Source: an uncultured Chloroflexia bacterium
GTDB lineage: Bacteria > Chloroflexota > Anaerolineae > JAAYZQ01
Assembly: GCA_963700285.1 (NCBI GenBank)
Contig: CAVOXA010000001.1
Span: 672,001 to 736,000, forward strand
Reading direction: 5' to 3'
DNA length: 64,000 nucleotides
Shown piece after piece: positions 27,673 through 40,991 of the stretch (the stretch's first letter is position 1; each line of letters begins with the position of its first letter). The notes beneath the pieces were generated by a model. The model had not been told where the DNA came from. It searched no databases and was given only the letters and a program-made list of their open reading frames with translations. A program made the translations under genes and the position numbers.

Positions 27673-29475
27673 TTAAGCGCTGGCTGTCGCCTCCTGTGGT
27701 TGCACTTCCGGCCGGCGCAGGTCACGCATGGCCTGTTGGTCCATGGTCGAGATGCGGGGCATGTCGATCATGTTCATGCGGATCATACGTTCGGTCATTT
27801 TGTTCACAAAAGCACGGTTCAACGCCGGGTAGCCCGCCATCTGGCGCAGCGTGCTGGCTAGTACCTGCAACAGATTGGAATCTTCCTCGAGGATCACGTT
27901 GGCCGTGCGGGGCACTGCGGTCAGGGCCGCAATCTCGCCAAAGAAATCGCCGGCTCGCAGTACCTCCAGTACCCGCTCCCGGCCATCCTCCTCGCGCCCG
28001 GCCACCGCCGTGCCTTCCAGGATCAGGTAGGCAGCGTCGCTGACCTCGCCGTGGCGCAGGACGACGGTCCCGGCCGGTGCCTCGATGTAGGTCATGTCTT
28101 TGAGCAGGCCCTTCCGCTCCTCCGTGCTCAGCTCGGCAAAGGCAGGCATCCGGGTTGCGTAGCGGTTCAGGTCGGCCAGCACCGCCGCCCGGCCTACCGC
28201 CAGCCCTGGCGCGACCGGCACGCTGCGCAACAGGCTCACCGCCCGCCGCCACCGCGCCGCCGGCTGGCGCAGCCCGGGCAGCACGGCCGCCAGCGCCCCG
28301 CCAAACAGAATGAGCAGGGAGGCGGCCAACATCATCCAGCGCACATCCAGCACGTCCGCCAGTCCGGCCAGGGCCATGCCCACCAGGTACACGACATCCC
28401 GCGAGACAAAGTAGGCGCTGGCCACGCGGCCCCGGATCTCACGCTCCGTGTAACGCTGCAGGATCAGCCTGCGACCGATAGCCCCTGGCGCGTTCATGAA
28501 GCCCGAGAGCGTTACCAGCGCAAAGGCCACGGGGATCGATGTGGCCCCGGCGTAAAAGACACCAAAGATCCCCATCCCCAGCCAGCTCAGCGCCATCCAC
28601 TGGCCTTCGCGCAAGCGGTCCACCAGGCCCGCCATCAGCAGGCTGCCAACGACAAAGCCTACCGACGTCAAAGCCTCCTGCACGCCGTACTCAAACTCGG
28701 TGGCCCCCAGGGCTTCTGTGGCAAAGGGCAGGAGCAGCGTGTTCCACATGCCAAAAGCGACCATGATGGGTACCGATACGATCACCAGCGAGCGCAGTAT
28801 CTGCGAGTCGAACATGTACTGGAGGCCGGCCTTGAGGTTGCGCATCACGACCTTGATGTTGGTCTTCTCATCCACGGCATAGGAGGGCACCCGCATGGCC
28901 AGGATGCAGGCAGCTGAGAGGAGAAAGGTCAGGGCGTCCAGGTAGAAGGCCCATTCAATAGCGGCCGCGGATGCGATCAAGCCCGCAGCGGCAAAGCCAA
29001 TCGCCGTCGAACCAAAGGAACTGATGGCCAGCATCGAGTTGGCCGCGCCAAGCTCCTCCTCCGAGGCCACGTCGGGCAGCAGGCTCTCTTCCGCCGGCGC
29101 AAAGAACTGCCCCACCGCGCTGGTCAGCATGATCAGTACATACAGCCAGACGATGCTGTAGGGCACCAGAAAAGGGATGAGCAGGACCAGGAAACCGCGG
29201 ATCACGTCCGAGGCGATCATGATCCGCCGCCGGTCATAGCGGTCGACAAAGACCCCGGCTATCAGGCCCACGACCAGCGTGGGAATGACGGTGGCCATCA
29301 GCATCAGACCGACGCTCAGCGCGGAGCCGGTCAGGCGGTAGACCAGGATCGACGCCGCCAGGGATGTCAGCGAGGTGCCGATGGTGGAGACGAGTTGGCC
29401 GCTCCACAGCAGGGTAAAGTTTCGATTGCGGAAAACGGCAAAGGCTGAGACTTTGCTTTCACCCGCTTCGGTCAT
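27673..29475 (-). CDS. MFS transporter (MFS_3/DHA3-like) with C-terminal cyclic-nucleotide-binding domain
   Basis: FRNRNFTLLWSGQ, GVFVDRYDRRR; CNB motif YLILEG...GDFFGEIAALTAVPRTANV. Confidence 0.92.
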   Translation of the reverse strand: MTEAGESKVSAFAVFRNRNFTLLWSGQLVSTIGTSLTSLAASILVYRLTGSALSVGLMLMATVIPTLVVGLIAGVFVDRYDRRRIMIASDVIRGFLVLLIPFLVPYSIVWLYVLIMLTSAVGQFFAPAEESLLPDVASEEELGAANSMLAISSFGSTAIGFAAAGLIASAAAIEWAFYLDALTFLLSAACILAMRVPSYAVDEKTNIKVVMRNLKAGLQYMFDSQILRSLVIVSVPIMVAFGMWNTLLLPFATEALGATEFEYGVQEALTSVGFVVGSLLMAGLVDRLREGQWMALSWLGMGIFGVFYAGATSIPVAFALVTLSGFMNAPGAIGRRLILQRYTEREIRGRVASAYFVSRDVVYLVGMALAGLADVLDVRWMMLAASLLILFGGALAAVLPGLRQPAARWRRAVSLLRSVPVAPGLAVGRAAVLADLNRYATRMPAFAELSTEERKGLLKDMTYIEAPAGTVVLRHGEVSDAAYLILEGTAVAGREEDGRERVLEVLRAGDFFGEIAALTAVPRTANVILEEDSNLLQVLASTLRQMAGYPALNRAFVNKMTERMIRMNMIDMPRISTMDQQAMRDLRRPEVQPQEATASA

Positions 29476-29490
29476 TGGATCCTCCTCCTT

Positions 29491-39000: not shown

Positions 39001-40991
39001 TCGCGATCCCGCTCCGTGAGACGGCCATAGATGCCGCTCAGATCGGTGTAAACCAGGCCCAGCAGCTTGCCCCCGGCCACCAGCGGCGCGCACAGGACCG
39101 AGCGCTGGCCCAACTCCTCCCCGTCTTTGGCGGGCAAGCCTGCCCTGAGCTTCGAAGGGTTGCCAACTTGCCCTACAGGAAGGTGGCGCAGGATGGGGAC
39201 GCGCTTCTGCGCTAGCTCGTCCAGGATGGGTGTGATCTCGTCCAGCCAAGACCCTTGGGGTTTTCCGGAAACCCCAAGGGTCTGTTCTTCGCTCAGTACC
39301 GCCAACCGTCGCTGCCCTTCGTCATCGATCAGAAACAGCGCCGCTCGCTCCGCCCCGGTCAGCTCCACGACTTCGTCCAGGATGAACTGGGGCAGGTCGC
39401 CGGCCTCGCGGCGGGCGTTCAACCGCACGCCGACCTCGATCATGCGCGCCAACTGGGCCTGGGGGTCGACGGGCCCGGTCAGGCCATCAGTCATCGGCGC
39501 CAGGGGTAGGCCCCGCTCCGCCGCCCCGGCCAGCCAGGCCTCCACGACCTGGCGGTTGATGGCCACCTTGTTGAAGTAATTGCGCCGCAGCCCGTCGTCG
39601 CTGAGCGTGGCGACGCTGGCTAACATCGCTTCCCGCGCCCGGTCGAGCGCGTACCACGCTGCATCGTCTGACTGCGGAACGCTGACCGCCGATGGCTCCG
39701 ACAGGGCCTGGTAGCACCACCACCATACCTCCTGCGCCGGGTACTCGCCAACGGCATCGCCTGCAGTCTGCAGCAGGGCCACGGCCTGGGTCGTGCACTC
39801 CCGGGCGTCCTGCCGGTCGCCCAGCCCCAGGTGCGCCGCCCCCAGCCAGGCCAGGCAGGTGGCCCGATCCGCCGCTGCGGCCACATCCGCCGCCATCTCC
39901 GCCGCGACCTGGAACAGGTCGCGCGCCTCGCCCGCGCGACCGTGGGCCAGGGCCACCTCTCCCAGGCCCAGCCAGAAGGACATTTCTGCGAAGCGGTCGC
40001 CCACCGCCTGGGCGATTGTGCGCCCCTCTTCAAAGAAGCCTTCGGCCCGGTCCAGCTCACCCAGGCTCAGACTGGCGCGTCCCGGGCCATCGAGAAAGTA
40101 GGCCAGGGAGAGCTGGGCCCCCATCTTTCGCCCCAGCTCGACAGCGCGCTGGCCATAGTCATGCGCCCGCCCGTACAGGCCCAGCTTGTGATAGACCAGC
40201 CCCAGGTTGTTGTAGATCACGGATTGGCGCTCGATGTGGCCGATGGCCTCAAAGCGGGCCAGCGCCTGCTCGTAGCGGGCGCGCTGGCTCGCATGATCGG
40301 AGGAAGAAACGCCCAAACCATTCAGCGCATTGCCCTCCCCTTCCTGATCCCCCACCTGGCGGTAGAGGGCCAGCGCTGCCAGGCTGAAGGCCCGGTCCTG
40401 AGCTGTCTCACCCCGTCGCTGCGCCAAAAAGGCCAGCAGTCGTTGGCTCTGAGCCTGGCCAGCCAGGTCGCCCAGCTCGCGGAACAGGCCCCTGGCCTCC
40501 TCGGCATAGGCCTGGCTGAGGGCCAGATCGCCTGAATGGCCGCAGGCATCGGCCAGTGCCGCCAGGCTGCCGGCCTCCAGACGGTGCCCCTGCCCCTCGG
40601 GCAAGTCCGCGTGCTCGCGAGCCAGGGCCAGGGCTGCCTCGGCCGTCTGCCGCGCCTCTGCCAGGCGGCCCCTCTGGATCTGGTATCTGACCTGGCGGTG
40701 CATGACCCGCACCTGGCGGGCTGGGTCATCGATCTCACTGGCCAGGGCAGCCATGGCCGCCAGATCGGCCTCCTCGGCCGCCAGGTCCCCCAGGTGCCGG
40801 TAGCCCTCGGCCCGGCCATCCAGCAGCTCGTAGGCGGTCTGGGACGGTAGGGGCGGGGTTTCCCCGCCCGTTGCGCCCAGGGCCTGCGTGTAAAGGGACA
40901 GCGCCTCTTCCCATAGGTAGGCGCTCTGGGCTCGGGCCGCGGCAGTTTTTAGCTCCTCGATGGATTGCTTGGTTCTGGTGTCCTCTGCCAT
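33023..40991 (-). CDS. Giant hybrid histidine kinase: TPR array + 9 GAF + HisKA + HATPase + 2 REC (~2,650 aa; frameshifted near 36470, plus compensating shifts at ~37500-37660)
   Basis: Repeated ELxIINSxQQ...[11 protein letters not shown] units; [31 protein letters not shown]; two REC domains. ORFs 35889-40991 and 33023-36472 join within a GAF domain. Confidence 0.9.
33433..33465. repeat. Palindromic mini-element, AGACTTC family, in frame in the kinase linker
   Basis: Perfect IR AGACTTCCGAAGTCT-gag-AGACTTCGGAAGTCT, encoding [12 protein letters not shown]. Confidence 0.85.
34125..34179. repeat. Heptamer (TGCGTGT) tract with nested GCTCAGGACAGG element, in frame in the HATPase domain
   Basis: gtgtgcgtgttgcgtgtt[ccttcggctccgctcaggacagg]tgcgtgttgcgtga. 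Confidence 0.8.
39132..39177. repeat. GTAG-type REP-like hairpin interrupted by a CCTGAGC element, in frame in GAF1
   Basis: Minus strand GTAGGGCAAGTTGGCAA[CCCTTCGAAGCTCAGGGCAGG]CTTGCCC. Confidence 0.75.
39249..39283. repeat. Palindromic mini-element (AGACCC variant) within GAF1
   Basis: Perfect 15-bp IR AGACCCTTGGGGTTT-tccgg-AAACCCCAAGGGTCT. Confidence 0.8.

Follow-up and report, generated by a model that had tools for sequence, protein, structure and literature searches.

A phosphorelay, cyclase and transporter cassette

How might a phosphorelay govern a membrane transporter from a cassette in which no DNA-binding regulator is encoded? The question is raised by four genes in a 64,000-nucleotide stretch of DNA from an uncultured Chloroflexia bacterium (contig CAVOXA010000001.1). 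The whole stretch, G000:C1:672001-736000 in our numbering of genomes and contigs, is called the window here. We propose, with moderate confidence, that the phosphorelay sets the level of a cyclic nucleotide monophosphate (cNMP) and that this nucleotide would switch the transporter; the cargo is most likely a small processed peptide. The four-gene arrangement is real. A preliminary description of this DNA had reported four adjacent, co-oriented genes and no DNA-binding regulator among them; both statements held, and the domains it named were confirmed. The genes lie on the minus strand with gaps of 63, 1 and 15 nt, in gene order:

33023..40991, minus strand: cytoplasmic hybrid histidine kinase, TPR-9xGAF-HisKA-HATPase-REC-REC, approximately 2,650 amino acids if joined
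32600..32959, minus strand: stand-alone Hpt with its phosphoacceptor His, ATG start after a GGAGAGGAG site
29491..32598, minus strand: REC-(HAMP-like)-C1-C2 tandem class III cyclase-(winged helix/arm/one TPR)-HD, STAND-derived and without AAA
27673..29475, minus strand: 12-helix DHA3-like major facilitator superfamily (MFS) permease with a C-terminal cNMP-binding (CNB) domain at approximately 28158-27781

The proposal draws on the His/Asp relay residues, a cyclase fold like that of human soluble adenylyl cyclase (sAC) with its metal Asp pair, the HD site and the cNMP-binding cassette of the transporter. A cytoplasmic signal read by the TPR/GAF array would drive transfer from His to Asp, to Hpt and then to the REC domain of the cyclase. 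Phosphorylation of REC, acting through the HAMP-like helices, would shift the balance between cNMP synthesis by C1-C2 and breakdown by HD; REC control would thereby replace the AAA/TPR and bicarbonate controls lost by this STAND-type family. The cNMP would then bind the C-terminal domain of the transporter and alter its activity. CRP and further CNB effectors encoded elsewhere in the genome would probably also respond to the same pool. A small processed peptide would be the likeliest cargo, judging by the neighbors of related transporters and of a paralogue rather than those of the window copy.

Relay residues and STAND ancestry

All of the relay residues are kept: the HisKA His, the N, G1 and G2 boxes, the REC Asp and Lys, the Hpt His and the Asp of the output REC. 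With the His-Asp-His-Asp series complete, phosphotransfer is predicted. The stand-alone Hpt gene was confirmed by PF01627 (E 1e-16); an ORF finder had placed its start at a TTG at 32992 instead of the ATG that follows the GGAGAGGAG site. The kinase has all the domains described, including two REC, and is not a single open frame. A break near 36,470 divides it into open reading frames (ORFs) of 1700 and 1149 amino acids, the latter C-terminal and carrying phosphoacceptors His629, Asp934 and Asp1077, with three compensating shifts of a single base each near 37,560-37,690. A related contig has one base fewer than the window at 36,470, which favors an assembly error, and intact one-frame homologues of 2,291-2,635 amino acids exist. 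The breaks at both places are probably assembly frameshifts.

Two parts make up the predicted sensor region of the kinase:

39492..40991, minus strand: TPR superhelix, with homology to the tail TPRs of STAND cyclases and AAA-wH-TPR-GAF kinases (wH, winged helix)
34673..39476, minus strand: nine GAF units, of which units 2-8 are close repeats

The TPR region matched a full STAND cyclase tail (L121 residues 928-1417) at E 1.7e-21, and AAA-wH-TPR-GAF kinases with a homologous TPR were found at 8 loci of the same class (L229-L234, L238 and L239). The AAA_16 NTPase domain is absent from both kinase and cyclase. The two proteins appear to be parts of STAND proteins that became phosphorelay components when the ATPase was lost. 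No TPR was found on the kinase of G001, a genome of the same genus, so the TPR seems dispensable in this sister lineage. Purifying selection (omega 0.09-0.43) was seen in every domain for which the two genomes were compared.

The cyclase and its active site

REC, both cyclase domains and HD were present in the third gene as described, and two further segments had been overlooked: a HAMP-like helical linker (residues ~135-212) and, at residues ~665-830, what remains of a STAND protein, consisting of a winged helix, an arm and one TPR. The final ~23 codons are probably off-frame; another related contig, not the one cited for the kinase, differs by one gap in the HD tail. Of the 120 best cyclase matches, 45 share the exact architecture and 44 contain an AAA domain, while both AAA and HD are missing from 25. 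REC-HAMP-like-C1-C2-winged helix-HD is a real protein family. Seven relatives (P0023, P0064, P0065, P0066, P0072, P0074 and P0087) carry a tandem HisKA-like module before REC and another, P0122, carries Hpt, which suggests a built-in relay.

The predicted fold was compared with that of human sAC (ADCY10, 4clf). The two aligned with Z 36.9 and a root-mean-square deviation of 2.9 over 416 residues, and by sequence the match was E 4e-32. They have in common the tandem C1-C2 fold, the metal-binding Asp pair (D245 and D297, kept in 120/120 relatives) and the equivalent of sAC Arg416 (Arg606, kept in 117/120); the phosphate Lys residues are also kept. Relative to sAC, the cyclase has gained REC, the HAMP-like input and HD and has lost AAA and the long TPR. 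In place of K95 and R176, which we take to be the bicarbonate-site residues of sAC, it has Gly293 and Ala389, and none of the 120 relatives has Lys or Arg at these columns. With the bicarbonate site lost, REC probably substitutes for bicarbonate control. Adenylyl cyclases specify the base with Lys plus Asp or Thr, and guanylyl cyclases with Glu plus Cys or Gly. The positions of sAC K334 and T405 are occupied here by Gln525 and Gly595, which is neither usual pair. Among the 120 relatives, position 525 is Gln in 95, His in 16, Lys in 4 and Glu in 3, and position 595 is Gly in 114. Cya2, which has a Glu/Gly pair, shares the second residue (available part of PMC4215837). Bicarbonate-activated sAC-like cyclases are described for Chloroflexus in the accessible part of PMC11006738.

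One catalytic residue differs in this genus:

30793..30795, minus strand: Ile602 codon, replacing the transition-state Asn (N412 of human sAC)

Asn is found at this position in 118/120 relatives, whereas both G000 and G001 have Ile. The codon is identical in the two genomes, so it is not a sequence error, and cyclic-nucleotide synthesis may therefore be weak in this genus. According to the available part of PMC4215837, an Asn-Arg pair is usual in class III cyclases, and Ma1120 is active with Ala at the Asn position, restoration of Asn having reduced its activity. Since Ma1120 works with Ala, inactivity with Ile602 is possible rather than established.

This substitution suggests an alternative in which the cyclase, weak or inactive in this genus, is a nucleotide-sensing scaffold. 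The output of the relay would then be the HD domain, which would control the transporter by lowering cNMP made by other cyclases. The C2 domain is under purifying selection in spite of the Ile shared with G001 (omega 0.17, a rough pairwise estimate), five other class III cyclase loci are present in G000, and a cyclase-like ATP-binding protein, 6yii, is among the structural neighbors. Furthermore, HD is the part that was copied along with a second MFS-CNB gene, which has no adjoining cyclase. Retention of both metal Asp residues, Arg606 and the phosphate Lys residues argues for a working enzyme, as does the effect of the Asn position in Ma1120. We consider this alternative the main rival to our proposal, though a doubtful one.

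The HD domain would supply the breakdown of cNMP in the proposed mechanism:

29554..30093, minus strand: HD-type metal-dependent phosphohydrolase domain whose H, HD and D ligands are invariant

It matched only the general Pfam HD family. The best solved matches, 2pq7 and YedJ, are uncharacterized HD proteins, and its matches in the atlas were unnamed HD clusters. Relatives L122, L125 and L176 have this HD joined to a CNB domain, and in G000 it stands next to CRP or the second transporter copy. From this gene context HD is a putative cNMP phosphodiesterase.

The transporter and its neighbors

The predicted model of the MFS-CNB protein has a 12-helix MFS fold, with a predicted local distance difference test score of 81.5. 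The best family matches of the permease were the DHA3 exporters TIGR00900, EntS, Tap and Mef, all below their curated cut-offs (216.6 against 319.6 for TIGR00900; 106.6 against 324 for EntS); the CNB fusion sets the protein apart from them. The CNB domain matched PF00027 at E 2e-17, and PKA, PKG and CRP were also matched. The intact GE...RTA phosphate-binding cassette noted previously was borne out, GE...R[TSA]A being invariant in 47/47 aligned relatives.

The kinase-Hpt-cyclase-HD core was found in 6/6 genomes fetched (G000, G001, G015, G019, G021 and G317), the contig of G019 beginning inside the kinase. A CNB effector, which is MFS-CNB, CNB-SpoIIE or CNB-HEAT, adjoins the core in 5/6. MFS-CNB follows it only in G000 and G001 (2/6), which belong to the same genus and have the same gene order. 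CNB-SpoIIE occupies the slot of the transporter in G021 and G317, and in G015 CNB-HEAT and an RRE-M50-CNB-CNB protease stand beside the core. In an order-level survey of 23 genomes, cyclase-HD was found in 5 and the transporter in 2. Conservation of the neighborhood, proposed earlier as a check, thus holds for the core and not for the transporter that follows it.

The MFS-CNB family as a whole was found in 13/400 genomes of the class and 16/400 of the phylum. Its neighbors were counted as GAF-array/TPR hybrid kinases or class III cyclases within ~10 kb. Around 14 class loci there were kinases at 6, cyclases at 3, proteases at 7, CRP at 2 and peptide genes at 2, with none of these at 5. Around 16 phylum loci a cyclase was found at 5, a kinase at 0 and no island gene at 10. 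Around 47 metagenome loci, a kinase or cyclase was found at 16, a protease at 17 and a peptide gene at 10; another 33 of the 80 loci (L176-L208, CNB-only or distant) were left out of this tally. With both flanks of at least 2 kb, 7/10 metagenome loci had a kinase or cyclase. By comparison, the parts of G000 that are within 10 kb of a cyclase amount to 1.6% of the genome. MFS-CNB stands beside such kinases or class III cyclases far above background, in tallies whose loci are kin and for which several detection profiles were built from the same loci, Pfam confirming representatives.

A quick tree of the transporters, from which frameshifted and partial copies were omitted (including those of G001 and the C5 paralogue), placed the window copy in no supported clade. 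Adjacency to kinases or cyclases recurs over several branches of this tree. Four of the 13 class genomes with the transporter also have a tandem cyclase, against ~2.6 expected, in searches that scored 3-4 candidates per genome and may have missed some; the cyclase count of 79/400 includes the unpublished G357. Without enrichment at the genome level, the conserved partner would be a cyclase of some type and not this one. Two of 22 annotated loci found by the cyclase query, L024 and L029, have the transporter, a TPR-GAF kinase, Hpt and REC-cyclase. A GTDB scan that used the full cyclase picked up mainly the REC motif: 1 match among 80 loci was full-length, and 23 of these loci were annotated. 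A reverse test with the TPR profile was tried and set aside: it found 16 non-self genomes at 300 bits or more, 5 with the transporter, and gives no support because 4/5 had built the profile, the rest being mostly AAA-bearing STAND kinases.

Could co-selection at the level of the regulon, together with shuffling, be all that keeps the transporter near cNMP genes, with this cyclase not locally coupled to it? The missing genome-level enrichment would fit, as would family f71, in which the transporter has none of these neighbors in 7/7 genomes. Against loose clustering stand the recurrence of adjacency on several branches of the transporter tree and the 15-nt spacing in the window, and we judge it very improbable.

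The neighborhoods also permit the transporter to be an input rather than an output. It could act as a co-sensor, either touching the STAND-type TPR carried by the kinase or by STAND cyclases or providing the ligand for that TPR, and the binding of cNMP would close a feedback loop; MalK acts on MalT in an analogous way. MFS-CNB directly precedes a TPR kinase in G169, G090, G309, G243, L029, L131, L134, L141, L143 and L157, it adjoins STAND cyclases in G771, G680, G657, L137, L140, L145, L152 and L166, and both types of partner carry homologous TPRs. G001, however, retains the transporter with a kinase that has no TPR, and in G021 and G251 the TPR kinase is present while the fetched stretch contains no transporter. 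A co-sensor role is quite unlikely on this evidence.

A subset of a larger peptide island

The fullest islands (G169, L024 and L130) contain the kinase, Hpt, a REC-single cyclase, CNB-SpoIIE, CRP, a repeat peptide, a small GAF protein, a subtilase and MFS-CNB, and an oligopeptidase is additionally present in L024 and L130. The window cassette shares the kinase, Hpt, REC-cyclase and MFS-CNB with G169, L024, L029 and L130. Beside the window copy there is no CRP, peptide, small GAF, subtilase or oligopeptidase gene. The cassette is a trimmed or reshuffled subset of this larger Chloroflexota cNMP-protease-repeat-peptide island.

Unannotated repeat-peptide ORFs of two types, one with VxAH repeats and a helical leader and the other with DVEGH, adjoin the transporter or CRP in two sets of loci: L024:14263-15417, L029:269-724, L102, L130, L138 and L227; and L148, L155, L162, L164, L165, L169, L171, L172 and L212. 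No NCBIfam match was obtained for the six such ORFs examined.

Related islands occur elsewhere in G000. The second MFS-CNB copy lies with a stand-alone HD gene at C5 259-261 kb and has no cyclase beside it. Its island (C5 259,000-269,300, L001/L002) includes CRP, a peptide gene of the Os1348/NHLP clan (70 bits against a cut-off of 40), an M16 peptidase and an RRE-M50-CNB-CNB protease. A third cNMP island (C14 138,600-146,500, L004) has CRP, two Os1348/NHLP-clan peptide genes, a stand-alone HD gene, the same type of protease and CNB-SpoIIE. No modifying enzyme was recognized in the scans run on the C5 and C14 loci. These islands place the cassette in one cell with transcriptional and other cNMP effectors. 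The PqqD(RRE)-M50-CNB-CNB protease of C5 and C14 is related to daptide proteases. A similar island in G001 (L242) has STAND cyclases on its flanks, and four more NHLP-like peptide genes lie beside an M50-type protease at G000 C1:1,159,000-1,167,700.

The preliminary description had read the cassette as a local circuit that is self-contained, works independently of transcription and may feed cNMP back to the GAF domains of the kinase. Its tight co-oriented spacing, the lack of an internal regulator and the same order in G001 would suit a closed circuit. The feedback component found no support: the cNMP-GAF motif of the PDE/CyaB type, which we take to be N[KR]...F...DE, had no match in the window kinase or three relatives, and the nearest solved structures were sensor-kinase and PTS-type GAFs rather than the cNMP binders, 1ykd matching at E 1e-4 only. 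Independence from transcription is weakened by CRP in related islands (G169, G389, L024, L029, L130 and L138) and in the two other cNMP islands of G000, where further CNB effectors also occur. The cassette is probably not self-contained either, as the exact four-gene set was found only in this genus (2/23 order genomes) and other CNB effectors replace the transporter elsewhere. We regard the closed circuit as unlikely; the earlier interpretation is only partly supported.

Several findings weigh against our own proposal of a relay that sets cNMP and thereby switches the transporter. The Ile602 substitution has been described; the Gln525/Gly595 pair does not point to a particular product, and HD has no characterized close relative. 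The loci tallied are related to one another, and the profiles were partly built from them. No island gene was found at 10/16 phylum and 5/14 class loci, some of which are on short contigs, and co-occurrence with the tandem cyclase was not enriched among genomes. No peptide gene or island protease was found next to the window copy, and a search of G000 at family-level scores turned up neither the subtilase nor the small GAF nor the VxAH/VxGH peptide of the island.

A bolder version of the proposal is regulated secretion. A STAND-derived relay would control a bifunctional Gln/Gly cyclase/phosphodiesterase, the product possibly being cyclic GMP or another nucleotide other than cyclic AMP, which would directly gate an MFS exporter for processed signaling peptides, and HD would found a bacterial cNMP phosphodiesterase family that is still uncharacterized. 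We put it forward only tentatively and consider it improbable in full.

Other features of the window and genome

One promoter-like site was found upstream of the cassette:

41510..41537, minus strand: sigma-70-like site with an extended -10, ~520 nt upstream of the kinase, a consensus match only

The scan found 4 such sites against 1.7 expected by chance. No CRP-box-like palindrome was found upstream of the kinase. One RNA library contained short contigs near-identical to kinase and cyclase, which may come from DNA carry-over rather than expression. An anti-phage role (Pycsar or other) was considered and rejected, the PADLOC models having given weak domain-level matches only, none of them full-length.

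A paralogous GAF kinase-REC-REC-Hpt gene with a REC protein of non-cyclase output lies at G000 C1:226,000-231,800 (L003). Its REC is 65% identical, making it a possible cross-talk partner. The remaining features of the window are these:

17059-23546: XPB/RAD25 helicase gene in frameshifted pieces, then two Helicase_C_3 proteins, one with a SWIM finger
25685-25908: two tRNA-Met genes
25983-27448: directly downstream of the cassette, a gene for an M50 peptidase-TPR protein and a 116-aa ORF, with their own promoter-like site at 27636-27608; synteny with G001 extends over at least the first 650 nt
44159-44480: a tandem array of three palindromic 96-nt repeats with 95-100% identity, located upstream of a PMT-family gene; 5 loci of the genome have related repeats
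52721-55762 (plus strand, 1013 aa) and 59543-60811 (minus strand, 422 aa): ORFs without a Pfam match

Relation to known systems

Each part of the cassette has a precedent, and no description of the arrangement as a whole was found in the literature searched, in which subscription journals were mostly outside coverage. The earlier remark that no characterized system has such a layout therefore agrees with the searches; LtnB/LtnA/LtnT, CyaC and CAPE are partial precedents. The same literature yielded no description of the cassette, the MFS-CNB family or the VEGH peptide and no characterized cNMP-gated MFS transporter. Mycobacterial Rv3728 and Rv3239c, presumably MFS-cNMP-patatin proteins, are alike in the MFS-CNB fusion, whereas the protein here has no patatin, has a DHA3-like 12-helix permease and is linked to kinase-cyclase islands. 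LtnB/LtnA/LtnT is reportedly a hybrid kinase relay, attributed to Maeda et al. in 2006, and we know of no cyclase-HD enzyme in it. CyaC is said to be one chain with a single cyclase domain.

In Synechococcus elongatus, LtnB/LtnA/LtnT likewise links a relay to a secondary transporter whose C-terminal domain is cNMP-binding-like (RmlC) (available part of bioRxiv 10.1101/2025.09.11.675521). LtnT is a SulP/SLC26 protein, whereas the transporter here belongs to the MFS. In cyanobacterial CyaC, too, a class III cyclase is under two-component control and the kinase modules bear GAF domains (accessible part of PMC12282138); the separate Hpt relay, tandem cyclase, HD and linked transporter are features of the present cassette. 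Marchantia CAPE also has a cyclase and a phosphodiesterase on one chain, the latter of class I (portion available of PMC8115329). The HD domain here had no match to a characterized phosphodiesterase in the searches run and would be under REC control.

With its invariant cassette and repeated cyclase links, the MFS-CNB family could show directly whether a second messenger gates a secondary carrier. How class III enzymes select their base can be examined in the Gln/Gly cyclase family. HD, which occurs in fusions with cyclases as well as CNB domains, is a candidate bacterial cNMP phosphodiesterase of a class so far missing. The locus as a whole appears to record how STAND proteins were rewired into a phosphorelay through loss of the ATPase.

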